A DNA stretch of 64,000 nucleotides from Thermoplasmata archaeon (GTDB taxonomy: Archaea > Thermoplasmatota > Thermoplasmata > Lutacidiplasmatales > UBA184): assembly GCA_021806135.1 (NCBI GenBank), contig JAJZYB010000007.1, forward strand, positions 217 through 64,216, in the 5' to 3' direction. The notes beneath the pieces are model-generated. The model was not told the DNA's origin, did no database searches, and was given only the letters and a program-made list of their open reading frames with translations. The position numbers and the translations under genes were made by a program. Of this stretch, positions 7,063 to 63,360 are shown piece by piece. The first letter of the stretch is position 1. Each line of letters begins with the position of its first letter.

Positions 7063-7127
7063 GAGGGCGTCCCCGGGCGGAGAGGGGATCCTGCGACCGC
7101 TGGGCATACCGCCCCTCTTGTTCCCGG

Positions 7128-8262: not shown

Positions 8263-8398
8263 CGGTGGGCCCGCCGGGGACCTCTCCCCGGACCCCGGGG
8301 TGGTCGCCGGGGACCGCTGTGCGCCCGTCCCTGGGCGAGACGGCGGCCCCCGGCCCCGGGAGGCAAAGGATAAGCGCGGTGGGACACCGGCCCGGGGC

Positions 8399-9671: not shown

Positions 9672-11936
<2,265 letters not shown>

Positions 11937-26860: not shown

Positions 26861-27374
26861 CCTCCCCGAAGAGGCTCACGCGCCAGCGGGGGGGAAGGTG
26901 GGGGTAGTTCACCAGGAGGGCCACCACCAGGATCACGGCGAAGAGGAGGACGGCCACGGCGAGGTGGAGGATCACCACGATCGGGTCCGCCTGGGTGAAG
27001 ATGATGACGCCGCCGAGGGCCGCCTGGAGGACCACCAGCCCCAGGGAGAGCGCTCCGAGGCGCCGGACCACCCGGCGACCCGGTTCGTAGGCCAGCACCA
27101 GGGCCAGCAGGGTGAGGATGAGGGCGGAGAGGGTGAGCGCGGCCAGCCGGTGGGAGAACTCGGCCACGACCTCGCTGGTCAGGGTGACCGGGAGAAGCCC
27201 GGTGCCGTTGCAGGTGGGCCAGCTCGGGCAGGCCAGGCTCGCGTTCGACGCGGTCACGTCGGCCCCGATGACGATGGTCACGTAGGTCCAGAGGGCCGTG
27301 ATGACGGAGACGATGCGTACCCACCGGTGGCCCCGGGGATGGGGGACGTGGGGAGTGGGGGCGCTCTCGGTCAT
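26832..27374 (-). CDS. heme A synthase-like protein (short archaeal CtaA type)
   Basis: CPSWPTC Cys pair in the first extracytoplasmic loop, four TM helices. Start at CAT 27372-27374 within ORF 26832..27881; it overlaps the coxI stop. Confidence 0.65.
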
Positions 27375-29626
27375 GCCCACGGGTCCTCCGAGGCCGGGGT
27401 CCCCCGGTAGCGGCTCATCACCATGTTGAAGACGAAGAAGAGCTGGGCGATGCCGAAGATCGCCGCCCCGATGGTGGAGAGCAGGTTCAGCTGGGCGAAG
27501 TTCAGTCCGATGGGGGTGGAGAGGCCCGGGATGTAGGAGTACACCCGTCGGGGCATCCCGCCCATGCCCAGGAAGAACATGGGGAAGAGCAGCATGTTCG
27601 CCCCCACGTAGCTCAGGACGAAGTGCCAGTTGGCGAGCTCCTGGTTGTACCAGCGCTTGGTGACGATGGGGTAGAGGAAGTAGATGCCGGCGAAGGAGGC
27701 CATGAGGGTCCCCCCGAGGAGGGTGTAGTGGAAGTGGGCCACCACGAAGTAGGTGGCGTGGGCCAGGTAGTCGATGGGGATGGACCCGAGCATGACGCCG
27801 GAGAGCCCCCCGATGAGGAACATGGTGAAGAAGGCGATGAGGAACCAGGTGGGGGTCTCCAGCCGGACGGACCCGCCCCACAGGGTCCCCAGCCAGTTGA
27901 ACATCTTCACCCCGGTGGGGACGGCGATGGCCATGGTGGTGAGCATGAAGGTGAACCGGACGTCGGTGGCCTCCCCGGTGGTGAACATGTGGTGCTGCCA
28001 GACCACGAAGCCCAGGATCCCGATGGCGGCGATGGACAGCGCCATGGCGGTGTAGCCGAAGATGTGCCGGCGGACCATCTTCGGGAGGATGGTGGAGACG
28101 ATCCCGAAGGCCGGCAGGATGAGGATGTAGACCTCCGGGTGCCCGAAGAACCAGAAGAGGTTCTGGTACATGAGCGGGCCTCCCAGCGGGGAACCGTTCA
28201 CGGCGTAGGTGAAGTGGGTCCCGAAGTTCCGGTCGGAGAGGATCATGGAGAGGGCCACGGAGAGGGAGGGCATGGCGGCGAGGACCAGGAAGCTGTTGAT
28301 GAAGACCGACCAGACGAAGATGGGCATGTTCCAGTAGGTCACGCCCGGGGCCTTGTGCTTGATGACGGTGACGATGAAGTTCACCGCGCCGAGGATGGAG
28401 GAGACGGAGAGGATGTGGAGTCCCGCGACCCAGAGGTCGATCCCGTGCCCGGGTTCCAGGGTGGCCAGCGGCACGTACCCCGTCCAGCCGGCATTGGCGT
28501 TGGACAGCACCAGGATGATGGCCGCGGGGGGGAGGAGCCAGAAGGCCAGGTTGTTGATCCGGGGCATGGCCATGTCCTTCGACCCGATCATGGTGGGGAG
28601 CAGGTAGTTGCCGAACCCGCTCATCAGCGGCATGATGGCCAGGAAGATCATGATCGTCCCGTGCTCGGTGAAGAGCGTGGAGTACATGTCCGCGGAGATG
28701 CCGATCTGGGAGGCGGCGATCCCCAGGGCCGGGATCCCCAGGTCCGCCCGGATGAGGATGGCGTAGACGCCTCCCACGAAGAACATCAAGAAAGCGAAGA
28801 CGATGTACATCAGTCCGATGTCCTTGTGGTCCGTGGTCACCAGCCAGCGGAGCACGTGGCGGCGGAACCAGTACGGGAGCGGGCGGCTGCGGGCGACCTT
28901 CTGGTAGGCCAGGTCCCGGGACCGGTGGAGCACGTCCAGGACGTGGAAGAGGAGCCCGCCGCCGAGCGCCATGAAGGCGATGGCGAAGCCGAAGGTGCTC
29001 TCCACCCCGGGCGTGGTCAGCGGGGGAAGGGTGAGGATGAAGCCCGCGAGCACCCCTTCGCCGGCGAGGACCAAGACCACTCCGGCGATGTAGTAGTCCA
29101 GTTTACGGCTGATGCCCTCGGGGACCTCCTCGCCGGAGGGGTAGCTCACCACGCCGGCATAGGCGATGAACACCCCCGCCGCGAAGGGGATGAGCCCCAC
29201 CGCCCCCAGGGTGCCCTGGACGGAACCGGTCACCGTGACCTGGATGGGCCCGGTCAACGGGCTCGAGCTGTTCACGTAGAAGTACTGGCCCGGGGCGAGG
29301 TCCATCTGGAATCCGTTCGACTCCCCGGCGAGGACGGCGATCCGTGGGCCCAGGGTGCTGCAGCTCGGGTCGGTGCCGCAGGAGAAGACCTGGATGACGG
29401 AGTTGTTGGTGCTCCCGACCCAGCTGACGTTGTAGACCACGTCCTGGCTCAGGCCGTAGGGGGTGCTGTAGCCCACCACCTGGGAGGGGTTGATCGGTTG
29501 CGGTCCGCTGGAACCGGCAGGGGCTCCGGTGATCACGAAGCTCCACGTGGGGCTGGCCGGCGAGACCACCAGGGCGCCTCCGATGACGAGGAGCACGAGC
29601 CCGAGCACCAACAGACCTCTTCGCAT
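27371..29626 (-). CDS. heme-copper oxidase subunit I with about 230-aa N-terminal extension
   Basis: Core contains the canonical CoxI segments ([30 protein letters not shown]). The N-terminal 230 aa form a signal anchor, a Ser/Thr/Asn-rich extracytoplasmic domain and extra TM helices. Confidence 0.9.
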
Positions 29627-29632
29627 GGCTCC

Positions 29633-29908
29633 TCACTCGAACAGCCGGATGCGGCGGGAGAGCGGGTTACGGAGCCGGTCCAACCGGTAGACCACCCCGA
29701 GGGTGAGGTAGAGGAAGAAGACGAAGCCCACGCTGCCGAGGATCCCCAGGGGGAGCATGAGGGCGACGGCGCCTCCCCCCAGGGCGGAGGCGAAGGCCTC
29801 GGCCCCGGCGATCCCCGAGGCCATCCCCGATAGCGCGAGCAGGGTGAGGACGACCCAGATCACCCAGGTGCGGACCCGGGGGGGGTTCGCCGGCCCCTCA
29901 GCTCCCAC
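29633..29908 (-). CDS. small two-TM membrane protein (possible oxidase/bc complex small subunit)
   Basis: 91-aa ORF between the cytochrome b and coxI genes, same strand, with two hydrophobic helices. Confidence 0.4.
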   Translation of the reverse strand: MGAEGPANPPRVRTWVIWVVLTLLALSGMASGIAGAEAFASALGGGAVALMLPLGILGSVGFVFFLYLTLGVVYRLDRLRNPLSRRIRLFE

Positions 29909-31313
29909 GGGCGGACACCTCCTGGGGAGGCGACGCCGTCGGGCGCGGGGCGGGGAGGGAGCCCACCGGTGCGGGGGGGCCTCCCGGGGCGGGGCTCTTC
30001 GCCCGGAGTTCCCGGGCGAGCATCCGCCGGCGGTAGTTGGCCTTGTACAGCGGATAGAGGATCATCAGCGGGATCGCATTCGCGGCCACCAGGATCCCCA
30101 GGTAGCTCCCGTAGATCGTGGCCGGGATCTGCACGCCGGGCATGATGCCGCCCCAGATGGTCATGAGCACGAAGAACGAGACCAGGAAGTTCCCCACGAA
30201 GACCATGACCGGCCGGTCCCGGGGGTGGCGACGCTTGCCCCCGTCGAGCCAGGGCAGGATCTGGACGATCCAGGGGAGGAAGAGGATGAAGAGCAACAGC
30301 GCCGTGACCGAGCCCACCGCGACCACGGGGGTCACGTACTGGAAGTCGGCCATCTTGTAGAGCCAGAGGAAGTACCAGTCCGGCTCGGGGGAGGCGGCCC
30401 CCGCGGTGGAGCCGTAGTAGACGGGGAGCTGCCAGGGCCAGGCCGCGGCGATGAGGAAGAGGAGCCCCACGTAGAAGAGGGCCCACTTGGTCATGTAGAA
30501 GAAGACCCGGGGGAAGAAGCGTCCGAGCTTCCGGTCGTCGTGCTCGGTGAACTTGTTCTTCGCCCGGGGGTCGCTGGTGGCCCGGGGGGCGATCCCGTGG
30601 CTCTCGAAGAGGGAGAGGTGCGCGTAGAGCAGCCCGGCCAGGGCGAGGGGGATCACCACCACGTGGAGGGCGAACATCCGGGAGAGGAGGCCCTGGGTGG
30701 TCCCGTCGGAGATGAGGAGCCGGGCGGCGAGCGGCCCCAAGGTGGGGACGGAGAGGGTGAGGGAGATCCCCACGTCGGTGGCCCCCACGCTGAGCGCGGT
30801 GAAGGGGAGCAGGTAGCCGGTGAACCCCATGCCCAGCATGGTCACCAGGAGTAGGGTCCCGACCATCCAGGAGAGTTCGCGGGGGGGCTTGTACACCCCC
30901 GTGTAGAACCCCCGGAAGAAGTGGACGAAGGCCAGGAAGATGGTGGCGTACGCCCCGTAGAGGTGCGAGGAGAGCAAGAGCCAGCCCATGGGGACGCTGG
31001 TGATGATGTAGTTGGTGGAGGCCCAGGCCTCGGGAGTCCCCCCGGGCCCGGTGAGCGCGGCGGAGGGGATGTAGTAGAGCAAGAGGAGCAGTCCCGTGAC
31101 CACCTGGACCAGGAAGGCCGTGGCCACGAAGGCGCCGGTCCAGTACGAGGCGTTGAAACTGAAGGCGGGCTGCGGACGAAGCGCCCAGGTCTTCACCCCG
31201 GCCCGGTCCTCCACGAAGTCCCAGATCCGGTCCAGGGAGCGGTTCATGGGGGAGCGCCAGGGTGGGGGTGCGCTGCCCGGGGGGGGGGGAGGTCCGGAGG
31301 GTTCGTTCGCCAT
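29898..31313 (-). CDS. cytochrome b (bc-complex cytochrome b/b6-like)
   Basis: Multi-TM protein with cytochrome b N-terminal domain heme-ligand His positions and a GYLLPF-type segment. Confidence 0.85.
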   Translation of the reverse strand: MANEPSGPPPPPGSAPPPWRSPMNRSLDRIWDFVEDRAGVKTWALRPQPAFSFNASYWTGAFVATAFLVQVVTGLLLLLYYIPSAALTGPGGTPEAWASTNYIITSVPMGWLLLSSHLYGAYATIFLAFVHFFRGFYTGVYKPPRELSWMVGTLLLVTMLGMGFTGYLLPFTALSVGATDVGISLTLSVPTLGPLAARLLISDGTTQGLLSRMFALHVVVIPLALAGLLYAHLSLFESHGIAPRATSDPRAKNKFTEHDDRKLGRFFPRVFFYMTKWALFYVGLLFLIAAAWPWQLPVYYGSTAGAASPEPDWYFLWLYKMADFQYVTPVVAVGSVTALLLFILFLPWIVQILPWLDGGKRRHPRDRPVMVFVGNFLVSFFVLMTIWGGIMPGVQIPATIYGSYLGILVAANAIPLMILYPLYKANYRRRMLARELRAKSPAPGGPPAPVGSLPAPRPTASPPQEVSARGS

Positions 31314-31331
31314 CCTGTTCTTTGCGCCTCC

Positions 31332-32153
31332 CTACGCGGGGCACTGCTGGTTGGACGGCGTGAGGTTCGAGGCCTGGGAGCGCCCGGAGACGCCGGTCCC
31401 GCCGGTGAGGCTCGTGAAATGGTCCTTCACGGGGGGGCCGATCATGCTGTAGGCGTAGATGTTCCCTTGCGCGTCGGTCTTGAGCAGGGTCTGGGGGATG
31501 GGGAGGACCGTGGGGCCGGTGAGGATGGCGGCCCCACCCCCGTCCGAGGTCTGGGAGACGAACGGGTCGTAGGTGGACCCGTGGCAGATGCAGTGGATGA
31601 TGGCCCGCCCGTTGTTGAAGTTGCCGCACTTTCCCGCCGGGTAATAGGAGATGAACGGGGGGACACAGCCCAGGTGCTGGCAGATGGCGCTGTAGGAGAC
31701 CACCCCGTTGTTCGGTCCGATCCCGTTCGGGGCGGGGGACCCCAGGTAGAGCAGGAAGTTCGGCTCGTTGGTGAGCGGATAGTTGTAGAGGGTCAGTTCG
31801 TTGGAGTCCGGGTTGATGTGGCTCGCCACGTTGTCCACCGTGACCGCCGACCCGTCGCTGTAGAAGAGCTGGACCGTGGGGTAGCTCGCGAGCCCCTTGA
31901 GCGGGGGCTGGGCGTACTGCAGGGCCCCGGCGACGGCACCCCCGCCGGCCACGGCGGCGAGCCCTCCGATGGCCATGAGCTTCAGGATGTTCCGTTTGGC
32001 CTCGTCGACCTGTCCCTGGGTCTTCGGGTTGTTGAGGTCCGCCGGGGCCACGTGCCGGACCACCCCGGGGGGGGTCCGGTCGAAAAGGGCCAAAAAGTCG
32101 GCGAGCCGCTGGTCGTAGGCCTCCTCGCTGAAGTACGACGGTGCTCCGTTCAT
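31332..32153 (-). CDS. Rieske [2Fe-2S] protein
   Basis: Box I CQHLGC and box II CICHGS. N-terminal KRNILKLMAIGGLAAVAG resembles a KR-variant twin-arginine signal anchor. Start at CAT 32151-32153. Confidence 0.85.
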   Translation of the reverse strand: MNGAPSYFSEEAYDQRLADFLALFDRTPPGVVRHVAPADLNNPKTQGQVDEAKRNILKLMAIGGLAAVAGGGAVAGALQYAQPPLKGLASYPTVQLFYSDGSAVTVDNVASHINPDSNELTLYNYPLTNEPNFLLYLGSPAPNGIGPNNGVVSYSAICQHLGCVPPFISYYPAGKCGNFNNGRAIIHCICHGSTYDPFVSQTSDGGGAAILTGPTVLPIPQTLLKTDAQGNIYAYSMIGPPVKDHFTSLTGGTGVSGRSQASNLTPSNQQCPA

Positions 32154-32578
32154 GGTTGCCGTTCCTCCGATTCCCGTTCCCGCTCCTTCCGGAGCCGGAA
32201 TTCGAGCTCCTCCTCCCCCGTCACCGGAACCTCCTCGGCTTCCCCGGGAAGCTCCGCCTGGTCCGCGTCCTTGTAGACGTAGAGGATCACCATGATCCCG
32301 AAGAGGACGAGCACGACGGTGGTCAGGTTCAGCACGAAGAGACAGTTGAAGCTCGTCCCCCCCACGCTCACCGGTGGGAGGGGGCAGGAGATGGTGGTGG
32401 GGAAGCCCGGGGTGGAGGGAGGAGGAGAGCTCCCGTTGAGGGGGGCCACGGCGGAGAGCCTGCCCGCCGGGGAAGGGCCCGTCGCTGATGCGTTCGCGCC
32501 CGGAAAGGAGAGGGCGCCGACCAGCCCCACGATGAGGAGGAGGCCGAGGGAGATGCGTAGAGCCGTGCTGCCTCTCAT
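32150..32578 (-). CDS. small secreted/membrane-anchored protein with acidic C-terminus
   Basis: Signal peptide, one TM, EEELEFRLRKERERESEE tail. It is start/stop-coupled with the flanking genes. Confidence 0.4.
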   Translation of the reverse strand: MRGSTALRISLGLLLIVGLVGALSFPGANASATGPSPAGRLSAVAPLNGSSPPPSTPGFPTTISCPLPPVSVGGTSFNCLFVLNLTTVVLVLFGIMVILYVYKDADQAELPGEAEEVPVTGEEELEFRLRKERERESEERQP

Positions 32579-32943
32579 GGTCCGCCCTCCAACGGGTCGT
32601 CGGGGGGGAGAGGCTCGACCCTATGAACTTCACCCACGGACCAGACCCCTGGAGAGGAGACCGACACCACGGACGGGGGCGGGGAACCGAGCGTGGCTCC
32701 CGGGGAGGGCCACGGCTTGGAGGCGGCGTGGCCCTCCCCGGTGGCGGTCGGGGCCGGCGCCGGTGAGCGGGACCCCGGGTCGGTGGCGTCCCGGAGCTCC
32801 CGGAGGAACTCGTCCCGCATCCGCATGACCTTGGCATAGAGCCGTCCTGCGGTGCGGAAGAGCTCCCGGTTGTCTCCCCCCAGGAGGAGGAGGCCGCCGG
32901 CGAGGAGGAGGATCGTCCAATCCACGTCCGAGAAGAGGCTCAT
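32578..32943 (-). CDS. TatA/TatB family protein (TatB-like)
   Basis: MSLFSDVDWTILLLAGGLLLLGGDNRELFRTAGRLYAKV: N-terminal TM plus amphipathic helix typical of TatA/B. Its ATG overlaps the tatC stop (ATGA). Confidence 0.6.
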
Positions 32944-33767
32944 GCGGTCCCTCCAGGGAGGCCGCCGCGGCGGGGGGCGGTGGAGTGGCGCTCGTGCCGT
33001 TCGGCGGCCACCATGCCTCCCACGTAGAGGCCCATCATCGGGATGGCGATGAGCAGCATGGTGATGCCGGAGTTGTCCGGGGTGATGAGCATCCCGAAGA
33101 TGAGGCAACCGAGGATGGCACCCCGCCAGTGCTTCCGCCAGAAGTCCGCCGGCACCAACCGGAGCCGGCTCAGGGTGTAGATGAAGACCGGCAGTTCGAA
33201 GACCACGCCGAAGGCCACGGTGTAGAGGAGCGCGAAGGCGAGGAAGCTCCCCACGCTCAGGACCGGGGCGAGGTTGAGGGCACCCACGTAGCGGAAGAGC
33301 AGCAGGAAGGTGAAGGGGGTGAGCCAGAAGAGGGCCAGGAAGAAGCCCACGGCGAAGAGGAGCGTGGCGGGGAGGGCCACGCTGCGGATGAGCGCCCGCT
33401 CGTTGGTCCGGAGGGCGGGGACCAGGAAGGCCCCCACCTCGTGGGCGATCCAGGGGGTGCTGAGGACGAGGGAGAGGAGCAGTCCGATCTCCATCTGGGC
33501 GACGACGGAGTCTCCCACCCCGATGTTGAGGAGGGTGACGCCCGGCGGGAGCATGTCGTGGGTGAACCAGAGGAACACCTGGGCCGTGATGTTGTAGAAC
33601 GGGCTGGGGATGGGCAGCACGAGCGGGAAAGGGAGCCCGGCGACCGGGAAGGCCTGGAGCTTGAAGAAGAGCAGGAAGCCGAAGAGCGGGACCACCACCC
33701 AGAGGATGCGGACGACCCGTCGCCGGAGCTCGTCCAGCACGCTGAAGAACTGGTGGAGCTCGCTCAT
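32940..33767 (-). CDS. tatC: twin-arginine translocase subunit TatC
   Basis: Six TM helices with a TatC family pattern. Confidence 0.9.
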   Translation of the reverse strand: MSELHQFFSVLDELRRRVVRILWVVVPLFGFLLFFKLQAFPVAGLPFPLVLPIPSPFYNITAQVFLWFTHDMLPPGVTLLNIGVGDSVVAQMEIGLLLSLVLSTPWIAHEVGAFLVPALRTNERALIRSVALPATLLFAVGFFLALFWLTPFTFLLLFRYVGALNLAPVLSVGSFLAFALLYTVAFGVVFELPVFIYTLSRLRLVPADFWRKHWRGAILGCLIFGMLITPDNSGITMLLIAIPMMGLYVGGMVAAERHERHSTAPRRGGLPGGTA

Positions 33768-33772
33768 GCCCT

Positions 33773-34381
33773 CTATCGGGAGCCCGGCGGCTGGAGGGCG
33801 ACGCGTTCGGGGCCTTCCTGCCGGTTAAGGAAGAAGGTGACCAGGGGCTTCTCGGCCGGGCCCTCGAGGACCCGGCCATCGCGTCCCGCGAACCGGCTGC
33901 CGCACCGGGGGCAGGACCAGCGGTCCTCCCGGGGCTCGTAGAGGAGGGTGCCGGCGTCCCGAGGGCACAGGGTGCTGGCGCATCGGAGACGGTCGGTGGG
34001 GGTGAGGAGGGCCTGCCCCGGGGAGAGTCCGGGGCCCGGGGCAAAGAGCCCGGCGCCCTGCTGGCTCCCCATCCAGTGGAAGGGCAGGGGGCCTTCCCTC
34101 AGCTGGCGGCGGAACTCGAAGAGGCTCAGGTACCGTCCCCCCTGGACCAGGCGCCACTCGGGGTCCAGGAGAGGGCGGGCATCCGAGCCGGGAGAAGGAG
34201 GGGCGAAGGCGGGTCCCGGGGCAGGGGAGGGGGGAGCAGTCGGCTCCAGAAGCTGACGGACGGGGCGGGGGAGCCCCAGGGTGCCTGCGGCGAGCGCCGC
34301 TCCGGCGAGCAGCCCGAGGTCGGGTCGGGTCAGGGGGCTTGGGGGGTCTACCGGCGTTCTCCGTTCAGGGCGTCCGCTCAT
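33773..34381 (-). CDS. secreted Cys4 metal-binding protein with RR signal-like N-terminus
   Basis: N-terminal ERRTPV...LGLLAGAALAAGTLG resembles a Tat signal. C-terminal CASTLC...(17 aa)...CPRC looks like a Rieske-like or zinc-ribbon module. Confidence 0.4.
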   Translation of the reverse strand: MSGRPERRTPVDPPSPLTRPDLGLLAGAALAAGTLGLPRPVRQLLEPTAPPSPAPGPAFAPPSPGSDARPLLDPEWRLVQGGRYLSLFEFRRQLREGPLPFHWMGSQQGAGLFAPGPGLSPGQALLTPTDRLRCASTLCPRDAGTLLYEPREDRWSCPRCGSRFAGRDGRVLEGPAEKPLVTFFLNRQEGPERVALQPPGSR

Positions 34382-34407
34382 CGGTCCGTTCGCTCAGGCC
34401 CGGGCGT

Positions 34408-34611
34408 TCAGCGCAGTTGGGCCTGGTCCCGGGCCACGCGGGCGTTGCTCTGGGACTGGGCGAGCTCGAGCTCGGACTCCGTCTTCCCCTTCTTGAACTC
34501 CCCCACGGCCCGGCCGAGGCTGTGGGCGAGCTGGGGGATCTTGGCGGAGCCCCAGAAGAGGATGGCGAAGACCACGGCGATGATGATCCAGTCGTCGATG
34601 CTGTCGAACAT
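34408..34611 (-). CDS. tatA: twin-arginine translocase subunit TatA
   Basis: 67 aa: MFDSIDDWIIIAVVFAILFWGSAKIPQLAHSLGRAVGEFKKG is the canonical TatA TM plus amphipathic helix. Confidence 0.8.
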   Translation of the reverse strand: MFDSIDDWIIIAVVFAILFWGSAKIPQLAHSLGRAVGEFKKGKTESELELAQSQSNARVARDQAQLR

Positions 34612-34652
34612 GGGGGGACCTGCAGGGGCACCGTGACCACGTGCCTTATGGC

Positions 34653-34692
34653 GTTCGTACCGGAGGTACGAATCAGTATAGACTGTTCGTAC
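34653..34692. promoter_or_regulatory. Inverted-repeat operator candidate: GTTCGTAC-cggag-GTACGAA plus a third half-site TTCGTAC, 42-81 bp upstream of tatA
   Basis: Perfect inverted repeat read directly in the sequence. The same 7-8-mer recurs upstream of other copper/respiratory genes. Confidence 0.5.
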
Positions 34693-34712
34693 TCGCTGAC
34701 GGTGATCCGGGG

Positions 34713-35765
34713 TCAGGGGGAAGGGGCCGCCCGCCCCTCCCGGGCGTCGCCGGTGACGGCCCGGTCCATCGCCACCTCCACCAGGCCCTCGAGCTTCTTG
34801 CCCCCCTGGCGGAGGGCCGCGTTGAAGGAGGGGAGGGATTGCCCGGAGACCCGGCGGGAACGCTCGGGCCTTGCCGATTCGAGCTTGCGTTGGAGGTTCT
34901 TGACCTGGTCCCGGGCCGCACAGGCGTGGGCCAGGGAAGGGTGGACCAGCGCGTCCACCACCATCTCCAGCGCGGCCTTGTAGCTTTCCAGGGTCTCGGC
35001 CCGCGCCGGGTTCACCGTCCTCCGGCCCCGGGAAAGCGTGGGGAGGAGCTCCACCAGGATCCGGCCGCTCTCCCCCAGGGACTGGACCACCACCCGCCAG
35101 GAGAGCAGGTGCCGGGGGTCCGGGCTGCCGATCTCCCGGGCCAGCGACCAGTCTCGGCTCGCCAACTGGAGCTGCCGGACGAGGAGGGCATGGACCTTTC
35201 CGAGCTCTTCGGCGAGGGCGGGGGCGCGTTTGGAGCGGGAAGGCCCGTCCCGACGGATCAGTCCTTGGGCCTCCTCCACCAGGGCGCTCAGGATCATCCG
35301 CATCCGTTGGATCATCTGGGGGAGGGCGTACTTGGAGGGGTCCAGGAAGCTCTGGATCACCAGGCGGTTCGGTTCGTGGGCCACCACGCTGACCCCCAGG
35401 AGCCGGCGGGCGGCCGCCTGCACCTCCTCGACGGCCTCCAGGTTCAGGGGCACGTCGGAGAGGATCTCGATGGAGTCGTGGCCGGCCCGGTAGGCCCCCG
35501 CCACCAGGAGCTCCAGCTCGCCGGGGGACTCGAAGAGGCTGGCCTCCACCTGGAAGGGGGCCAGGGGCTTTCCCCCCGACTTTCCCTGGGCCGGACGCAG
35601 GTAGAGCGTGCCGTCGTCGTTCTGGTCGAAGACCACCATGTCTCCGGGCCGGAGGTGGAGGGCCTGGGCCCAGGGCTTAGGGAGGGTCACCGCGATGGAG
35701 GAATGACCAGCCTTGAGGACGCGTCGCTCCCTGGATGGTCCTCCCCACGGCACGGTCTCTCCCAC
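34713..35765 (-). CDS. AbrB/SpoVT-domain plus PhoU-domain regulator, copy 2
   Basis: HSSIAVTLPKPWAQALHLRPGDMVVF AbrB-like N-terminus plus PhoU-like repeats. Paralog of 5941..7062. Confidence 0.75.
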   Translation of the reverse strand: MGETVPWGGPSRERRVLKAGHSSIAVTLPKPWAQALHLRPGDMVVFDQNDDGTLYLRPAQGKSGGKPLAPFQVEASLFESPGELELLVAGAYRAGHDSIEILSDVPLNLEAVEEVQAAARRLLGVSVVAHEPNRLVIQSFLDPSKYALPQMIQRMRMILSALVEEAQGLIRRDGPSRSKRAPALAEELGKVHALLVRQLQLASRDWSLAREIGSPDPRHLLSWRVVVQSLGESGRILVELLPTLSRGRRTVNPARAETLESYKAALEMVVDALVHPSLAHACAARDQVKNLQRKLESARPERSRRVSGQSLPSFNAALRQGGKKLEGLVEVAMDRAVTGDAREGRAAPSP

Positions 35766-35805
35766 GGAAGACGGCTCCCGTGCCGGACGCTGACCCCGGC
35801 GGGGT

Positions 35806-35812
35806 AATAAAG
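35806..35812 (-). promoter_or_regulatory. TATA-box-like element (TTTATTA on minus strand) about 45 bp upstream of the AbrB-PhoU copy 2 start
   Basis: AT-rich heptamer in an otherwise 70% GC region at the expected distance for an archaeal promoter. Confidence 0.4.
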
Positions 35813-35909
35813 GCCTCTACGCGCAGCGCCCCTGGGGTCTTTCGCGAATTTACTAACGGTGCGGGAGCAGGGATCCGGGATATCCGGCCCTGCTGTTCGG
35901 CCGTCGTGA

Positions 35910-35927
35910 GTTCGTATGTGTACGAAC
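35910..35927. promoter_or_regulatory. Inverted repeat GTTCGTA-tgtg-TACGAAC
   Basis: Second copy of the TTCGTA/TACGAA palindrome, between the sulfocyanin-like gene stop and the AbrB-PhoU copy 2 promoter. Confidence 0.45.
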
Positions 35928-35950
35928 CGTTCCGTCGCTTGCTGGGAAGT

Positions 35951-36691
35951 TCACGGGGCGCCCGGCTTGGCCGGGGGGGCCGGCTCCTCCTCGTCGTCCG
36001 GCTCGTCCCGGCCCTCCGTGAGGTCCAACGGATACGGACGCGAGTCGTTGTAGTATTCCACCCGGCTCGTCAGCGGGGTGCCTTCCGCGGGAACCACGCC
36101 CTCCTCCGGGTGCCCCCGCTTCCCGTAGACCACGCCGAGGACCAGCGAAAGGAAGGCGAGGACCACCACCGCGATCACCACATACCAGAAGGCGGCGAAG
36201 GACGGGGCCGCCGCCGGGGCGATGCTCTCGTCCACGTAGACGAACCCTTCCATCCCCAGTGGATAGTGGGGCCGGCAGATGAACTGGTAGGCGCCGGGAG
36301 CCCCGAAGGTGACGTTCACGTAGATCACCTGGGACGCGTTCACCGTCCGGTCGGCGTACACGTCCGCCGGGGAGAAGAAGCTCGGCCAGTTGGAGTTGGT
36401 CGACGGAGGCGCGGTCTTGTTCACCTGGTTGGAAAGGGTGAACGTGTGGAGGTAGGTGCCTCCGACGTTGGAGATGATGAACTCCACCGCCTTGCTCGTC
36501 ACCTGGACGTCGGCCGGGACGAAGGTGAAGGAGTTCGTCGTGCTGATGTTCACCACCGTGACGCCGTTATGGGCCGGGGGATGCACCAGGGTCCCGTTCG
36601 GGCCCGTGGGGCCCGCCTGGGCGGCCCAGCCGAGGCCCGAGAGGACCACGGCCACCGCGAAGAGCACCGCCGCCAAGCGTAACGCACCCAT
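35951..36691 (-). CDS. sulfocyanin/halocyanin-like type-1 blue copper protein with C-terminal TM anchor
   Basis: Cupredoxin ligands in HTFTL and QFICRPHYPLGMEG (His, Cys, His, Met). Signal peptide, many N-x-S/T sequons, C-terminal hydrophobic anchor. Confidence 0.8.
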   Translation of the reverse strand: MGALRLAAVLFAVAVVLSGLGWAAQAGPTGPNGTLVHPPAHNGVTVVNISTTNSFTFVPADVQVTSKAVEFIISNVGGTYLHTFTLSNQVNKTAPPSTNSNWPSFFSPADVYADRTVNASQVIYVNVTFGAPGAYQFICRPHYPLGMEGFVYVDESIAPAAAPSFAAFWYVVIAVVVLAFLSLVLGVVYGKRGHPEEGVVPAEGTPLTSRVEYYNDSRPYPLDLTEGRDEPDDEEEPAPPAKPGAP

Positions 36692-36793
36692 CGCTTCCGC
36701 ACCCCCGGAGACTTCGACCCGGCTACCTCGCCCTGCTTAAGGCCGTTGCGTATGAACCGGGGCCCGGGTCCTCCGGCCTCCCCGGGGGGTGCA

Positions 36794-36801
36794 GTTCGTA
36801 C
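36794..36801. promoter_or_regulatory. GTTCGTAC motif copy in the divergent sulfocyanin / coxII promoter region
   Basis: Third copy; a 9/10 reverse-complement partner GCGTATGAAC lies at 36748-36757. ATTAAGAA TATA-like element at 36808-36815. Confidence 0.4.
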
Positions 36802-36853
36802 GCCGGGATTAAGAACGTATGCCGGGTCCCCCAGGAAGGATGGGGGTCTTCTG

Positions 36854-37081
36854 GTGCATCTGACCGGGGGAGGCGTGTCGGCCTGGGTCCTCTCTGCCCT
36901 CCAGTCCCCGTTCCAGTTGACCTACTGGCTGCTCCTCACCATCTTCTTCATGGCCCTGGCGGTGGGGCTGGTCTTCGTGGGACTCTTGGTCTACGGGCTC
37001 ATCCGTTTCCACGTCCGCGAAGTCCCCGCCCACCTGAAGAACGTGGCCCGGCCTCCCCGGTCGCCCCCGGTGAACCCATGA
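36854..37081 (+). CDS. small single-TM protein, possibly the split-off first TM helix of CoxII or an oxidase small subunit
   Basis: Hydrophobic helix TYWLLLTIFFMALAVGLVFVGLLVYGLI. Its stop overlaps the coxII ATG (ATGA). Start tentatively GTG 36854. Confidence 0.35.
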   Translation: MHLTGGGVSAWVLSALQSPFQLTYWLLLTIFFMALAVGLVFVGLLVYGLIRFHVREVPAHLKNVARPPRSPPVNP

Positions 37082-37641
37082 CGGTCGCCTCCGCCTCACC
37101 CTCCCGGCCGCCCCTCTCCCCCCGGGAGCGGGCCCGTCGGAACAAGCGGATCGAATGGATCTGGACCATCATCCCGGTCATCCTGGTGATGATCGTGGCC
37201 GGGATCTCCACGCCGCTCCTCTTCAACCTCGACACCGGGCCCGCCGCGTTCGGCTCCGACCCCAACATGAACGTCGACGTGACCGGCTACCAGTGGTTCT
37301 GGGAGTTCCACTATACCGACCCCTTCGGCAAGGCGCTCACGAACGGGACAGGGGAGGTCTTCTCCAATGGCACGCTCTGGGTCCCCCAGAACGCCATCGT
37401 CTGGATCAACGTCACCTCGGGGGACGTGGTCCACTCCTTCAACATCCCGCAACTCGGAGTGCGCATCGACGCGATCCCCGGGCGGATCAACCATTACTGG
37501 TTCGCCATCCCCGCCGGGACCGCCGTGGGCACGCAGTTCCTCGCGCAGTGCACGGAATTCTGTGGCGCCGGACATTACGACATGCGCGCGGAGATCATCG
37601 TCACCCCGGCCTCCCCTCTCCTTCACCCCATGTCGATCTGA
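37078..37641 (+). CDS. cytochrome c oxidase subunit II (CuA cupredoxin)
   Basis: GYQWFWEFHY and the CuA site VVHSF...CTEFCGAGHYDM. Only a single N-terminal TM helix. Confidence 0.9.
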   Translation: MTVASASPSRPPLSPRERARRNKRIEWIWTIIPVILVMIVAGISTPLLFNLDTGPAAFGSDPNMNVDVTGYQWFWEFHYTDPFGKALTNGTGEVFSNGTLWVPQNAIVWINVTSGDVVHSFNIPQLGVRIDAIPGRINHYWFAIPAGTAVGTQFLAQCTEFCGAGHYDMRAEIIVTPASPLLHPMSI

Positions 37642-37772
37642 TCCCCGCGGGGGATCGGCCGCGGGCGGCAGGGCGTCCACCGTACGGGTCCCGACCGGCC
37701 CACCCGCACCCCCGGGGGGTCCCCGCTCGTGTTCCCGACGGGGGAGGCCGCATCGGGGACGCCCGGCGGCCC

Positions 37773-38870
37773 TCACCCGGCTGGAGCTAGCACCTGCACC
37801 ACCGCCCGGGCGATCTCCAGATCCTCCCGGGCCCGGAGGACGAAGGCACGGACGGGCGCCGTCGCCGATCCGATCTCCCGGTCCGGCGCCCCCGATGGGT
37901 TCCTTCTGGGGTCGAGGGCGATCCCGAGGAACCCCAACCCGTCCGCCGCCCGGGACCGAATGGCCTCGGAGTTCTCCCCGACGCCACCGGTGAACGCGAT
38001 CGCGTCGAGCCCCCCGAGCGCGGCGACCATGCCGGCGATACCGGCGCGCAGCCGGTGAAGGTAGACCCCCACGGCGAGTACAGCGTCGGCGTCGCCGCGT
38101 GCCTCGGCCGCGAGCACCTCCCTGAGGTCCGCGGTGCCGGCCAGGCCCAAGACCCCCGAGCGGTGCTCCAGGGCCGCCGCGAGCTCGGAGGGCGGCATCC
38201 CCATATGCTCCTCCAGCCAGAGGATCAGCCCGGGATCGACGGTCCCGGAGCGGGTTCCCATCACCAGTCCCTCCAGGGGCGTGAAACCCATGGTGGTGTC
38301 CACGGAGACCCCCTGCCGTACCGCGGCGAGCGACGCCCCGGACCCCAGGTGGCAGGTCACGATGCGCAGCGCACGGGGGTCCCGCTCCATGAGTTCGGAG
38401 ACCCGCCGGGAGGCGTAGGCGTGGGAGAGCCCATGGAAGCCGAAGCGCCGAAGGACCCAACGCTGTCGCCACTCCCGGGGCAACGCGTAGGTGGCGGCGG
38501 CCATGGGCAGGTGCGCGTGAAAGGCCGTGTCGAAAGCGGCCACGGACGGGACCCCTTCGAGCAGCCCGGTCACCAGGTCCAGGGCATGGAGGGACTTGGG
38601 CTGATGCAACGGGGCCAGGTCCGTGAGGGCCTCGAGGCGCCGGCGAACCTCGGCGTCCACCCGGACGGGTCCCAGGAACTCCGTCCCCCCGTGCACGATC
38701 CGGTGCCCCACGGCGTCGAGGGGCCCCTGGGCGGTGATGAACTGGCGGACGGCGTCCTCGTCGATCCGCCCCCCGGGGACGGGGGAGGTCAGCTCGGAGA
38801 GGAGCCGTCCGTCCTCCAGCACCGAGAGCTTGAGGCTGCTGGAACCGGCGTTGACCACGAGGATCCGCAT
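37773..38870 (-). CDS. ackA: acetate kinase
   Basis: MRILVVNAGSSSLKLSV N-terminus, HLGSGAS and FTGGVGENS motifs of the acetate/propionate kinase family. Confidence 0.9.
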   Translation of the reverse strand: MRILVVNAGSSSLKLSVLEDGRLLSELTSPVPGGRIDEDAVRQFITAQGPLDAVGHRIVHGGTEFLGPVRVDAEVRRRLEALTDLAPLHQPKSLHALDLVTGLLEGVPSVAAFDTAFHAHLPMAAATYALPREWRQRWVLRRFGFHGLSHAYASRRVSELMERDPRALRIVTCHLGSGASLAAVRQGVSVDTTMGFTPLEGLVMGTRSGTVDPGLILWLEEHMGMPPSELAAALEHRSGVLGLAGTADLREVLAAEARGDADAVLAVGVYLHRLRAGIAGMVAALGGLDAIAFTGGVGENSEAIRSRAADGLGFLGIALDPRRNPSGAPDREIGSATAPVRAFVLRAREDLEIARAVVQVLAPAG

Positions 38871-38885
38871 GGTCCGTCCGCCCGG

Positions 38886-41324
38886 TCAATACGGCCAGAC
38901 CCAGTTGCGGATCTCCGGCGGGTCCTCACCGTGGGCCCGGGTGTAGGCCCGGCAGCGCTCCCGCTCGTCCTCCATGTCCTGGCGGAGACGGGCGGCATGG
39001 GAGGCCAGGCCCGGCACCCGGTCGATCACGTCCATCACCAGGTGGAACCGGTCGAGGTCGTTCAGCATCACCATGTCGAAGGGGGTGGTGGTGGTCCCCT
39101 CTTCGTTGTACCCGCGGACGTGGAGGTTCGCATGGTTGTGCCGCCGGTAGGTGAGACGGTGGATGAGGGCGGGGTAGCCGTGGTAGGCGAAGAGGACGGG
39201 ACGGTCCCGGGTGAACAGGGAGTCGAACTCGGCATCGGACAAGCCGTGCGGGTGCACGGTGTCCGGCTCCATCCGCATCAGGTCCACCACGTTGACCACC
39301 CGGACCTTGAGCGAGGGGAGCTCCCGCCGCAGGAGGTCCACCGCGGCCAAGGTCTCCAGGGTGGGGACGTCCCCGCAGCAGGCCATCACCACGTCCGGGT
39401 CACCGGCGTCGTTGGAAGCCCACTCCCAGATGCCAAGCCCCCGGGTGCAATGGAGGACCGCCTGGTCCATGGCCAGGTAGTTCAACGAGGGTTGCTTCCC
39501 CGCCACGATCACGTTCACGTACTGTCGGCTCTTCAGGCAGTGGTGGGCCACCGAGAGCAGGCAGTTGGCGTCGGGGGGGAGGTAGACCCGGATGATCTCG
39601 GATTTCTTGTTCACCACGTGGTCGATGAACCCCGGGTCCTGGTGGGAGAAGCCGTTGTGGTCCTGCCGCCACACGTGGGAGGAGAGCAGGTAGTTCAAGG
39701 ACGCGATGGGACGGCGCCAGGGGATCCGACGGGTGGTCTTCAGCCACTTGGCGTGCTGGTTGAACATGGAGTCGACGATGTGGATGAACGCCTCGTAGCA
39801 GTTGAACAGCCCGTGCCGACCGGTGAGCAGGTAGCCCTCCAGCCAGCCCTGGCACTGGTGTTCGGAGAGCACCTCCATCACCCGGCCCTCCCGGGCGAGG
39901 TGGTCGTCGGTGGGCAACCGTTCGGCCCCCCATTGCCGGTCCGTGGCCTCGAACACGGCCCCGAGCCGGTTGGAGGCGGTCTCGTCGGGGCCGAAGAGCC
40001 GGAACCGCGTGGGGTTGGCCCGGATCACGTCCCGGAGATACCCCCCGAGGACCCGGGTCGCCTCGGCGAACGTGGTGCCGGGCTTGGGCACCTCCACCCG
40101 GTAGGCCTGGAAGTCGGGGAGGGAGAGCTCCTGGAGGAGCAGGCCCCCATTGGCGTGGGGGTTCGCGCTCATCCGGCGCTGGGTCTTGGGCGCCAGCGAC
40201 GCCAGTTCCGGCAGGAACGCGCCCTCGGCGTCGAAGAGTTCCTCCGGCCGGTAGCTCCGCATCCAGGCTTCCAACTGGGCCAGGTGCTCCGGGTTCGTCC
40301 GCACCTCGGGAAGAGGGACCTGGTGGGCCCGCCAGGTCCCCTCCACGGGCAGGCCATCGACCACCTTCGGGCCGGTCCAGCCCTTGGGGGTGCGCAGCAC
40401 GATGAGCGGCCACCGCGGTCTCTGGCCCGTCGATCCGGACCGGGCCGCTCTCTGGATCCGGAGGATCTCCCCCACCGCGCTGTCCAGGGCGCCCGCCATG
40501 GCCCGGTGCATCTCTGCCGGTACGTCCCCCGAGACCCAGTGGACCGCGTACCCATAGCCCTCGAGCAGGGAGGTGAGCTCCCCGTCCCCGATCCGGGCCA
40601 GGACGGTGGGGTTCGCGATCTTGTACCCGTTCAGGTGTAGGATGGGCAGGACGGCCCCGTCCTTGACCGGGTTCAGGAACTTGTTCGAGTGCCATCCGGT
40701 CGCCAACGCTCCGGTCTCCGCCTCGCCGTCGCCCACGATGCAGCAGACCAACAGGTCCGGGTTGTCGAACGCGGCGCCGTAGGCGTGGGCCAGCGAATAG
40801 CCCAACTCCCCCCCTTCGTTGATCGACCCCGGCGTCTCCGGGGCCACGTGGGAAGGGATCCCTCCCGGGAACGAGAACTGGCGGAAGAGACGGCGCAGTC
40901 CATCCTCGTTCCAGGAGATGAGCGGGTAGACCTCCGTGTAGGTGCCCTCCAGATAGGCGTTGGCGACCGCCGCGGGACCCCCGTGGCCCGGGCCGATGAC
41001 CAGGAGGGCGTTGAGGTCCCAGTTCCGGATCACCCGGTTCATGTGCGCGTAGACGAAGTTGATCCCGGGGGTGGTCCCCCAATGCCCCAGGAGCCGGGGC
41101 TTCACCTGGTCGGGTCGGAGGGGTTGTCGGAGGAGCGGGTTGTCCATGAGGTAGATCTGCCCGACGGACAGGTAGTTCGCCGCCCGCCAGTAGGCATCGA
41201 TCCGCGCGACCTCGTCCTCGCGGAGGGGGCGGCCCGGATCCGCTGTCGATGCGCTCACGGGAGGTCCGCGGCCCACACCCGCTGGGGGGAGCGTGGGCTC
41301 CCCGCTGTAGCGGGGCCCATCCAT
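38886..41324 (-). CDS. xfp: phosphoketolase (xylulose-5-phosphate/fructose-6-phosphate phosphoketolase)
   Basis: 812 aa with GHWGTTPG and EGGELGY thiamine-diphosphate motifs specific to Xfp. Immediately upstream of ackA on the same strand. Confidence 0.9.
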
Positions 41325-41699
41325 GGGGGCGTGTTCCCGCAGGTGCCCGTCCCTGGAGCCGGGGAGGACAGGCGCTTCCCGGGGGGGGATCCCCGCGGGG
41401 AGGGTGCTCCAAAGCCGCCATCCACCTTCGGGGGAAAGACCGGGAAGGACGGCCGGATCGCCGGGGAATCCCTAATCGGAGGCAACGGGGCACCGACTGG
41501 GGGGAACGCGGAGGGCAGGGGCCCGGTTCCTCTCGCCAGGGTCCCAGCCGGAGTGGAACCCGGCATATCGGACGGGGAGCCGTGGACAGTTAAAAGGCCG
41601 GGCCGGTCGGGCCCTCGTCCCTCCCCCGGAGAACCGCCCCTCCGCTCGAACAGGCTTGAGCATACCTCTTCATAGGTCAGGGGGACTTCCTCGCTAGCC

Positions 41700-42245
41700 A
41701 TGTCCGGGAAGAAGCGTTCCCCCTCCCGCAAGAAGCGGCCGGTTGCCCCGGCTCGCTCGCGTCGTCCCCCGTCCCGCCCCGCGCGAGCCCGCCAGCCTTC
41801 CCCCTCCCAGAACCTCTCCCGGGATCTCTTCGAGACCCTGGAGCTCCTGGGGGATGCCTTCGAAGAGGCGGTGGGACACGTCCTCAAGCGCCCGGGCTCG
41901 CCCCTCCTCCTCGCGGGGCCCCGTCTCCCTCTCCCGCTCTCCCGCCTTGTCACCGGTTACGTGGGTTGGCAGATCGAGCTACGGGGCGAGCCGACGGCGG
42001 TGCCCTCCCTGCCCCGGGGGGTGCTCTACCTGTTGGCGTCGCCGGCTCCTGTGGGGGCCTCGATGCACCGGACCGGCGAGTCCCCGGTCCAAGCGGTGCG
42101 TTGGAATGCGGTCCACGCCCTGGAGCTGGCCAGTGCCGGGGCCCGCCTCCTCCTCCTCGCCGCGCCTCACGACTCGTCCGACCTTCCGCGCTTCCGGACC
42201 CTGGCGGAGGACGTCCGCGCCGAGTTCCGGCCGGACCAGGATTGA
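41700..42245 (+). CDS. hypothetical protein with basic K/R/P/S-rich N-terminal tail
   Basis: MSGKKRSPSRKKRPVAPARSRRPPSRPARAR... followed by a roughly 130-aa globular region with no recognisable motif. Confidence 0.35.
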   Translation: MSGKKRSPSRKKRPVAPARSRRPPSRPARARQPSPSQNLSRDLFETLELLGDAFEEAVGHVLKRPGSPLLLAGPRLPLPLSRLVTGYVGWQIELRGEPTAVPSLPRGVLYLLASPAPVGASMHRTGESPVQAVRWNAVHALELASAGARLLLLAAPHDSSDLPRFRTLAEDVRAEFRPDQD

Positions 42246-42257
42246 ACGGGCCCCGGT

Positions 42258-43367
42258 TCAGGGGGACACCGGAGGGGAGGTTCCGGGCCCGTCCGGGGGC
42301 GGGGACCCCCGCTTGCGGCGGGAGGTGCTGCTCTCGCTCATGCCCATGAGGACCAGGAAACCCGCCCCCGCGAGCACCACCGCCGCCACGACGAAGAGCC
42401 CCACCTGGACCACCTGGCCGACCACCGGCACGGCGTTGGGGGGCTGCGGGGTCACCCCCACGTAGACGCGCCCCTGCATTCCCGGGAAGTGACCGGGGAC
42501 CGTGCAGACGTACTCGTAGATGCCGTGGCTGGCGGGCATGGTGATCGGCGCCGTCACCACCGGAGGGGCATTGGGGGTCAGCGGGTCGTCCACGAGCGGG
42601 GGGTTCGACACGAAGTAGGCGAGCAGTTGGGCGTTCGAGAAGCTGTTGGAGAGGCCGGTATCGTTGGGGATGGAGTCCAGCGTGAACGTGTGCGAGAGCG
42701 CCCCCTGGATCCCCACCTCGAAGACGATGGGCAGCCCTGGCGCGGCGATCAGGATCGAAGGGACGAAGGTGATGGAACCGGTGGCATTCAGGAAGACCAC
42801 CTGGTGCGGGCCTACCACGCCCGCTCCCACGGTCAGGAAGCCGAAGAGCCCGGCCTTGAACTGATACCCACCCGAGGCCAGGGAGAGGAACTCGTAGCTG
42901 TCCCCGGCCGGGTCCGTCAGGGTCCGGAAGGTGTGGTTCCAGTACCCGGCCTGACCGGGGGCCAGGGTCAGGTTGACCAGGGAGGCGTTGGCGGGGGCGA
43001 AGAGGGCGAGGAGCTTCGCGGGGGTGATGTTCGCCGGGATCACCTGGTTGGGGGTGGCATCCACGGTGAAGGTGTGCGTCACGGTCCCCACGTTGACCAG
43101 GTGGAGGGAGAGCGTGGTGTTCAAGGAGACGTTCAGGGCGGAGGGTTCGTAGCCGTTGTCGGTCACGTTGACCGTCTGGTTCACCTGGGCGGCGGGGGAA
43201 CTCCCGGGGATGAACCGGGCGTACCCGATGTTGGCGGGGCTGACGTACCCGTCCACGTGCAGGAGGTAGGGGATGGAGAAGGCGCTCGCCACCATGGCCA
43301 GCGCCACCACCAGGGAGAGGGCTCCCCGGCGGGAGCGCCTGGGTCCACGCCTCCGAGGGGATCGCAT
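42258..43367 (-). CDS. tandem cupredoxin-domain blue copper protein (second domain with intact type-1 Cu site), membrane anchored
   Basis: Domain 2 has HTFTL...YVCTVPGHFPGMQG. Domain 1 has HTFTV but lacks the Cys. Arg-rich signal (possible Tat signal), C-terminal TM anchor, about 10 N-x-S/T sequons. Confidence 0.7.
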   Translation of the reverse strand: MRSPRRRGPRRSRRGALSLVVALAMVASAFSIPYLLHVDGYVSPANIGYARFIPGSSPAAQVNQTVNVTDNGYEPSALNVSLNTTLSLHLVNVGTVTHTFTVDATPNQVIPANITPAKLLALFAPANASLVNLTLAPGQAGYWNHTFRTLTDPAGDSYEFLSLASGGYQFKAGLFGFLTVGAGVVGPHQVVFLNATGSITFVPSILIAAPGLPIVFEVGIQGALSHTFTLDSIPNDTGLSNSFSNAQLLAYFVSNPPLVDDPLTPNAPPVVTAPITMPASHGIYEYVCTVPGHFPGMQGRVYVGVTPQPPNAVPVVGQVVQVGLFVVAAVVLAGAGFLVLMGMSESSTSRRKRGSPPPDGPGTSPPVSP

Positions 43368-43405
43368 CGGGAAATGCCCACGGGCCCGCCGTACATATCC
43401 CTGCG

Positions 43406-43423
43406 GTACGAACCGGCCGGTTC
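43406..43423. promoter_or_regulatory. GTACGAAC motif fused to a perfect 14-bp palindrome GAACCGGCCGGTTC, 40-57 bp upstream of the tandem cupredoxin gene
   Basis: Fourth locus carrying the motif. The palindrome overlaps the stop codon of the upstream gene. Confidence 0.45.
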
Positions 43424-62840: not shown

Positions 62841-62913
62841 GGGCGCGTGGTCTAGTGGTTATGACGTCTCCCTGACACGGAGGAGGTCCCCAGTTCGAAT
62901 CTGGGCGCGCCCA
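62841..62913 (+). tRNA. tRNA-Val (anticodon GAC)
   Basis: Cloverleaf folded by hand: acceptor GGGCGCG/CGCGCCC, anticodon stem TCTCC/GGAGG with loop CTGACAC, T-stem CCCAG/CTGGG with loop TTCGAAT, discriminator A. No encoded CCA. Confidence 0.85.
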
Positions 62914-63360
62914 CTGCGCTTTTCAAGAGCCATCGTGATTCATCGGCTTGCGCCCTCGAGACTTGATCCCACGGCGGACAAGTCTTGCGGACCCGGACAA
63001 TCCATTTCGCGGCTCGGGTCAAACGCGCCCCTACAACCCGACCAGGGCGTGCTGGAGGACGGATTACCGGAGCTCTTCCAGGGAGCGCCAGAACTCCACA
63101 TGCTCCGCCTTCCTCGCTAGCGACTTCAGATAGCGGGTCCGCTTCCCCCTGATGATGACGTCGTACGAATCTTCATGCGATTGGCTGGCAACGCGACGTG
63201 AATCGCGTCCGCCCCTTCCCAGTTGCCCTTCTACGAGATCGGGGAACGCGGTCACGGCGTCGGCGACCTCGAAGGCGCGGGGCCGCTCCGATGAACGCCG
63301 TCGGATAGATTCACCCCAGAGCCTGGTTCTCCTCGTCCGACCTCGAGGGAGGGATGCACG

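Follow-up and report, generated by a model that had tools for sequence, protein, structure and literature searches.

An 8-bp quasi-palindromic box, GTWCGWAC, lies before the promoters of a respiratory gene cluster in a 64-kb stretch of DNA (~70% GC) from a Thermoplasmata archaeon (GenBank assembly GCA_021806135.1, contig JAJZYB010000007.1, positions 217 to 64,216), which was analysed over its whole length and is called the window here. We predict from sequence comparison, with a probability of about 0.72, that this box is the site of a sequence-specific transcription factor co-ordinating the cluster, because it is enriched, specific to promoters, fixed in its distance to a TATA-like element, and conserved in about 90 loci amid diverging DNA. 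Its targets would be three to four transcription units from which the clade assembles its chain for aerobic respiration, namely the tatA-first operon (twin-arginine translocation (Tat) export, Rieske/cytochrome b, coxI, and haem A synthesis), the small-gene/coxII operon, sulfocyanin, and a tandem cupredoxin.

Occurrence and conservation of the box

The initial annotation of the window had described the motif as a spaced inverted repeat at four sites, all of which are present at the positions it gave. Site 1, located 42-81 bp upstream of the tatA start codon (ATG at 34611), contains GTTCGTAC twice (34653-34660 and 34685-34692) with GTACGAA (34666-34672) in between, and site 2 consists of GTTCGTAT-GT-GTACGAAC at 35910-35927. 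At site 3, GTTCGTAC (36794-36801) is accompanied by a 9/10 reverse-complement partner, GCGTATGAAC (36748-36757), and at site 4, GTACGAAC (43406-43413) overlaps the palindrome GAACCGGCCGGTTC. The excess and clustering claimed for the motif were also borne out. Compared to dinucleotide-preserving shuffles, TTCGTAC is found eight times in the window instead of the expected 1.34 times (none of 100 shuffles had as many), GTTCGTAC five times (0.31 expected), and GTWCGWAC five times (1.12 expected). All five 8-mers are intergenic, with 0.13 expected in the intergenic DNA of the window, and fall in four short gaps of one respiratory gene cluster. An unbiased k-mer scan identified GTACGAA(C) as the sole enriched 7/8-mer specific to intergenic DNA, while the remaining enriched k-mers (GGAGGA and similar) are widespread across the window. 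Two more matches to the 7-mer are unrelated and lie within an MFS transporter gene (24074) and in a lower-GC stretch past tRNA-Val (63163). We found no convincing box at the other promoters of the 64-kb window, including those of KatG, DoxX, PntAB, citrate synthase, phosphoketolase, and the AbrB-PhoU gene. One-mismatch boxes at the DoxX/AbrB-PhoU paralogue, CBS, and 41700 promoters were rejected as candidates, since they occur at the density of chance and are unconserved where this can be checked.

The comparison with relatives covered about 90 loci. L001, a contig of a Thermoplasmata metagenome-assembled genome, is collinear with the window at ~87% nucleotide identity; L002-L009, L012, and L013 were reached via orthologues of the AbrB-PhoU protein encoded in the cluster, which are only 52-66% identical; and a metagenome search with an AbrB-PhoU alignment yielded 80 further loci (745 kb in total). 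In alignments of the window with L001, the intergenic DNA has diverged save for the boxes and the adjoining AT-containing (TATA-like) elements, and flanking non-coding DNA is mostly unalignable between lineages. In a window-scale set of seven lineages (184 kb), 27 of the 28 exact boxes were located in the four orthologous gaps, which account for 2.4% of that sequence. The 80 metagenome loci contain 206 exact boxes, with 75 in the gap between the AbrB-PhoU gene and tatA and ~113 in the divergent region between coxII and sulfocyanin (together ~188 of 206), whereas the ~18 found elsewhere compare with ~22 expected from base composition. In these loci, 64 of 75 tatA junctions have one or more exact boxes, as do 60 of 63 divergent regions. 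Neither of the two tests that the initial annotation had proposed refutes its reading: the frequency in coding DNA and at unrelated promoters shows no excess above chance, and the box is kept upstream of orthologous genes in relatives with divergent AbrB-PhoU proteins. Within the 64-kb window and ~930 kb of related loci, the box is restricted to this single gene cluster.

Promoter architecture and mode of action

The unit kept between lineages is not the spaced inverted repeat originally described, the inverted copies being 5, 15, or 28 bp apart in different lineages, but the single 8-bp quasi-palindrome, mostly in the form GTTCGTAC/GTACGAAC and in some lineages GTACGTAC. It precedes a TATA-like element at a distance of 6-7 bp at the coxII, sulfocyanin, and cupredoxin promoters and of 3 bp at the tatA promoter. 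These positions recur in nine related loci as well as in the 80 metagenome loci. The coxII-operon box GTTCGTAC (36794..36801, + strand) lies 6 bp 5' of ATTAAGAA (36808-36815), and the arrangement box-N5-7-[AGT]ATAT is found in 51 loci; the TATA-like forms at this promoter are ATTAAGAA and ATATGTAG. On the other side of this divergent region, sulfocyanin has a degenerate box in the window (GTTCATAC on the gene strand; 36750..36757, - strand), 7 bp 5' of CCTTAAGC (36735-36742), but the box is exact in L002, L004, and L006; in 47 loci the promoter follows the pattern box-N7-[CG]TTT[GAT]A, and the TATA-like forms are CCTTAAGC and CTTTGAA. The two boxes of the region are usually 55-56 bp apart. The tandem-cupredoxin box (GTTCGTAC on the gene strand; 43406..43413, - strand) lies 7 bp 5' of ATATGTAC (43391-43398), which ends 24 nt before the ATG in the window and 24-28 nt before it across loci, a distance that fits a leaderless mRNA and thereby supports the TATA assignment. 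The palindrome GAACCGGCCGGTTC, which the initial annotation had highlighted at this promoter, is not kept in relatives and is incidental or lineage-specific.

At the tatA promoter, the proximal box (GTACGAAC on the gene strand; 34653..34660, - strand) lies 3 bp 5' of the putative TATA-like element ATAAGG (34644..34649, - strand), assigned from its position, which belongs to a conserved block and reads ATATCG in most relatives. Of 89 loci, 64 show the arrangement box-N3-ATA[TA], and tolerating one mismatch raises the count to 78. The distal box (GTACGAAC on the gene strand; 34685..34692, - strand) begins 32 bp from the proximal one, a spacing that recurs in other lineages, and between them lies a middle element, TTCGTAC on the gene strand (34666..34672, - strand), which is CTCGTAC in L001 and takes the form GTACGrGT, 13 bp past the distal box, in other lineages. 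In L015-L093, an AT-rich element (GTTTATCT, TTATAAG, or TATACT) is found 4-7 bp 5' of the distal box, just past the AbrB-PhoU stop codon, while the window has a TATACTG element on the other side of this box. The AT-rich element might serve to terminate AbrB-PhoU transcripts, as an additional promoter of tatA, or as an antisense promoter with a box-N-TATA arrangement on the opposite strand.

Site 2 differs from these promoters. Its two boxes, 10 bp apart (GTTCGTAT-gt-GTACGAAC; 35910..35927), are located 24 bp past the sulfocyanin stop codon and ~100 bp 5' of the TATA-like box of the AbrB-PhoU gene (CTTTATTA; 35805..35812, - strand), which is conserved between the window and L001 and has no adjoining box. 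The site is restricted to the window, L001, and L002; its boxes are inverted in the window but form a direct repeat in L002. The AbrB-PhoU upstream site of the initial annotation exists, but it is remote from the TATA-like box and confined to the closest lineages.

At the predicted position of about -45 to -38, just 5' of the B recognition element (BRE) and before weak TATA-like boxes, the factor would more likely than not act as an activator that helps to recruit TFB/TBP. In characterised archaeal systems, such as those of Ptr2, SurR, TrmBL1, and GvpE, sites 5' of BRE/TATA activate, and sites at or past the TATA box repress. An activating site appears somewhat more probable than the alternatives, because the box has the placement tied to activation in such characterised systems. 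The "operator" of the initial annotation would accordingly stand as a regulator site, though one whose position 5' of BRE/TATA suggests activation over classical operator function. Alternatively, the factor might repress from the same box by occluding BRE/TFB or looping the DNA, so that respiratory genes stay silent, e.g. when oxygen is absent or copper is limiting. We consider this alternative rather unlikely. In its favour, two to three boxes at tatA are spaced 13, 19, and 32 bp apart and the proximal one, 3 bp from the TATA-like element, overlaps the BRE position. In many lineages, an AT-rich TTTATCT also lies 5' of the distal box, and if this were the true TATA box, the tatA boxes would fall downstream of it; moreover, AbrB/MazE-type proteins are classically repressors. 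Yet at coxII, sulfocyanin, and cupredoxin, a single box is placed 6-7 bp 5' of the TATA-like box, clear of both TATA and the transcription start site, where SurR, TrmBL1, and Ptr2 sites activate. The tatA promoter may combine both modes: with the proximal box on the BRE position and the second box 32 bp, or about three helical turns, away, its architecture would allow co-operative or dual control (activation and repression).

Explanations other than a regulator site are far less probable. The fixed position by the TATA-like box, together with the CGAAC part of the box abutting the TATA-like element at tatA, might point to a basal promoter element, i.e. an extended or alternative BRE of a TFB paralogue marking a promoter class, but we regard this as very improbable. 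A BRE must be contiguous with its TATA box, whereas a GC-rich spacer of 6-7 bp intervenes at three promoters; a BRE is directional, whereas the box is found in either orientation at one and the same position (L002 and L009 vs. the window); and good TATA-like boxes elsewhere in the window, e.g. at AbrB-PhoU and phosphoketolase, are not accompanied by it. As sites 1, 2, and 4 lie 9-60 bp past stop codons on the same strand, and site 2 can fold into a hairpin of 8 bp in both the window and L001, the repeats could also act as RNA, namely as hairpins that terminate, process, or stabilise the transcripts of upstream co-directional genes at their 3' ends. This is even harder to sustain, given that fold energies are ordinary (z -0.35 to -0.79), the direct repeats of L002 remain unpaired, single boxes are unable to fold, and the site 3 boxes are found in a divergent promoter region without an upstream gene; an Rfam search gave no match. 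Least credible of all, and in effect refuted by the comparison of loci, is an origin by chance, compositional artefact, REP/MITE-like dispersed repeat, or remnants of an avoided restriction motif. The GTAC core is mildly under-represented (observed/expected 0.77) and intergenic DNA is somewhat AT-richer, but an avoidance of this size is weak, the observed counts lie beyond all shuffles with positions kept across ~90 loci, and, unlike a dispersed repeat, only 8 bp are conserved, without conserved flanks and only at these promoters.

Several observations nevertheless weigh against a transcription-factor site shared by the whole cluster. The spacing at tatA (N3) departs from that at the other promoters (N6-7), the orientation of the box varies, and its commonest form is an asymmetric hybrid (GTTC|GTAC) rather than a perfect palindrome, which is unexpected for a symmetric homodimer. 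The tandem cupredoxin, with an exact box in the window lineage, has only degenerate boxes (GTCGGTAC or GTTCGGAC) in the wider clade, and site 2 is lineage-specific, being absent from the 80 metagenome loci. For the regulator discussed below, the promoter of the AbrB-PhoU gene itself has another conserved palindrome instead of the box, and the place of this gene in the cluster could have another cause. The comparison spans ~20 kb per genome, so the regulon is seen within that span, and transcription start sites and TATA-like elements are predicted rather than mapped. Because the loci are related to each other by shared ancestry and are not phylogenetically independent, formal p-values overstate the significance.

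The respiratory gene cluster and its candidate regulator

Gene calls in the window were based on codon-position GC and Pfam. The tatA-first respiratory operon (25883..34611, - strand), assigned by Pfam and with the same gene order in relatives, comprises tatA (34411-34611, - strand; translation examined), an unknown gene, tatC, a Rieske-like region, cytochrome b, a small gene, a fused coxI, ctaA, and ctaB/ubiA. Upstream of it follow the AbrB-PhoU gene (34713..35753, - strand; 346 aa) and the gene for a sulfocyanin-like blue copper protein (35951..36691, - strand; Pfam Copper-bind, with faint SoxE matches in orthologues). Divergent from sulfocyanin is a unit (36854..37641, + strand) of a small membrane protein gene (36854-37081, + strand), recognised as an open reading frame (ORF), and coxII with a CuA motif (37078-37641, + strand; Pfam COX2). 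On the minus strand, a CBS protein gene is followed by the tandem-cupredoxin gene (42258..43367, - strand), which has a weak Pfam Cupredoxin_1 match and orthologues in relatives. The gene order is identical in L002-L009, L012, and L013. With sulfocyanin, Rieske (weak match), cytochrome b, subunit II, and a fused subunit I(+III) identified by Pfam, the gene set of a SoxM-type respiratory supercomplex is present, and the cluster presumably resembles soxEFGHIM of Sulfolobus.

Variability is found in several parts of the cluster. Genes for a phosphoketolase (XFP) and an acetate kinase (37773-41324) are inserted between cupredoxin and coxII in the window and L001, while in other lineages this place is either empty or taken by TauE and DUF1634 genes. 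The coxI gene (27371-29626) encodes a 751-aa fusion in the window and L002-L007, which corresponds to separate genes of ~89, 125, and 560 aa in the wider clade. A box-like GTACGTAC located 134 bp before the coxI match in L020, L023, L036, L037, L038, and L050 was discarded as a candidate site, as it codes for the C-terminus (AYVL*) of the small gene in front. The full sequence reads GTACGTAC-TAG-GGGGGA-CTTATCGC, with the Shine-Dalgarno-like part serving the next gene, and is probably conserved because it is coding.

The AbrB-PhoU gene is the sole gene with a DNA-binding domain conserved in the cluster and is located between sulfocyanin and tatA in every locus examined. Its product has an N-terminal SpoVT/AbrB (MazE) swapped-hairpin domain (PF04014, E 8.4e-11), in which the segment RERRVLKAGHSSxAVTLPK is invariant or nearly so in 43 orthologues, which parallels the constancy of the box. 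In an AlphaFold2 (AF2) model (pLDDT 83), the C-terminal domain is helical, and the best Foldseek matches of the model in the PDB are PhoU proteins (probability 1.0, TM 0.5-0.6), although with weak E-values of 0.007-0.04. Pfam detected no PhoU match in this copy, and a PDB sequence search with the protein returned Sso7c4 alone (E 0.9). Residues ~70-140 of the model form a beta-alpha-beta-alpha-beta-beta middle domain with a faint Foldseek match to Alba/Sso10b2 (E ~0.4).

By association, AbrB-PhoU is the most likely cognate factor of the box, an assignment that we make tentatively. A MetJ-type beta-sheet dimer reads one major groove, and a compact 8-bp dyad would be a better fit for a beta-sheet dimer (AbrB/MazE or ribbon-helix-helix (RHH)) than for a helix-turn-helix dimer. 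The PhoU-like domain might respond to a metal or an energy/redox signal. The complete scheme, in which the swapped-hairpin dimer reads the box and the PhoU-like domain senses metal, redox, or energy state to switch on the whole aerobic chain, is conceivable but less likely than not.

The palindrome in the promoter of the AbrB-PhoU gene, CTACGGACCTCGTAG followed by TAGGTT, was found in 75 of the 80 metagenome loci, 20-40 bp 5' of the start codon and just 3' of the TATA-like TTCAAATG; of its 80 matches genome-wide in L015-L093, 78 fall here. Some variants, e.g. ...CCTGTAG, retain G-U instead of G-C pairing, and the window (~35766-35790) has CACGG...CCGTG in its place. This pattern suggests an RNA hairpin in the 5' untranslated region close to the Shine-Dalgarno site or perhaps an operator for autoregulation.

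A paralogue of AbrB-PhoU (5941-7062), 33% identical to the cluster copy and with a sub-threshold Pfam PhoU match (E 0.008), is encoded divergently from the DoxX gene. Its surroundings (5207-11936) include DUF981 and a catalase-peroxidase gene (9672-11936), and this region may be a second redox-related module with its own AbrB-PhoU regulator. An HTH_10 protein (4436-5149), which the initial annotation had named for binding assays alongside the two AbrB-PhoU proteins, was not supported as a regulator or as a member of the regulon: only eight homologues are detectable, its TATA-like stretch is unconserved, and the box-like GTTCATAC upstream of it (4364) lies in DNA that is coding in L010, where a chorismate-mutase-like domain and HTH_10 are fused. 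In the window, the two parts (3979-5149) are in different frames, whereas L010 has a single 361-aa ORF (4001-5086); the difference could be due to a frameshift or assembly error or to a genuine split or fusion. At the end of the window (62841-64000), tRNA-Val(GAC) is followed by a lower-GC stretch (0.59-0.65) without a clear codon-position signal and with one stray GTACGAA, which may be the remnant of an integrated element.

Significance and comparison with known systems

In the literature searched, we found nothing on the control of terminal oxidases in these archaea, and searches for the motif and for AbrB/PhoU proteins returned only primers or lists, without any characterisation. AbrB-PhoU proteins, frequent among archaeal genomes, form a family without an assigned target. 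TK2245, a SpoVT/AbrB-PhoU protein, is listed as chromatin-associated (PMC7325993), and "PhoU family" transcription factors have been counted in Pyrococcus (PMC6316755). Archaeal proteins of the TK2245 type have the same domain architecture as the candidate in the cluster, and for their family we found no target motif, regulon, or function in the literature. If the complete scheme for AbrB-PhoU given above is right, the box would provide the first defined motif, regulon, and physiological role for this widespread family, and the protein would be the first master regulator of respiration to be described in Thermoplasmata. A shared regulator site before co-functioning operons is expected and brings no conceptual surprise. 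Still, with its defined geometry, ~90 natural sequence variants, and an obvious candidate protein, the box is a concrete, testable cis-element, through which the control of aerobic respiration becomes directly approachable in an uncultured soil/peat Thermoplasmata clade.

Likenesses to known regulatory systems can be found at several levels. The bacterial FNR/ANR boxes of terminal-oxidase promoters and the CsoR, CueR, and CopY operators likewise represent cases of one motif uniting oxidase, electron-carrier, and copper-protein operons, but they belong to another domain of life and differ in promoter architecture, motif, and regulator families. The copper response elements of Chlamydomonas CRR1 and plant SPL7 share a GTAC core before genes for copper proteins and electron carriers; these are, however, read by eukaryotic SBP-domain factors, of which none was seen in the window, and the likeness is probably coincidental. 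The met box of MetJ, an RHH protein, and the operators of AbrB, MazE, and MraZ share with the box a compact, dyad-like 8-bp unit that can recur in a tandem register of ~10 bp, as at site 2 (8 + 2 bp). In contrast to these operators, the box described here is mostly single and asymmetric (GTTC|GTAC), and lies 5' of an archaeal TATA-like box. Finally, the archaeal upstream activating sequences (UAS) of Methanocaldococcus Ptr2, Halobacterium GvpE, and Pyrococcus TFB-RF1 differ from the box in sequence, the cognate protein here is probably not of the Lrp, GvpE, or TFB-RF1 type, and activation is predicted from placement; yet they share with it a short site directly 5' of BRE/TATA, weak promoters, one site per promoter, and a fixed distance.

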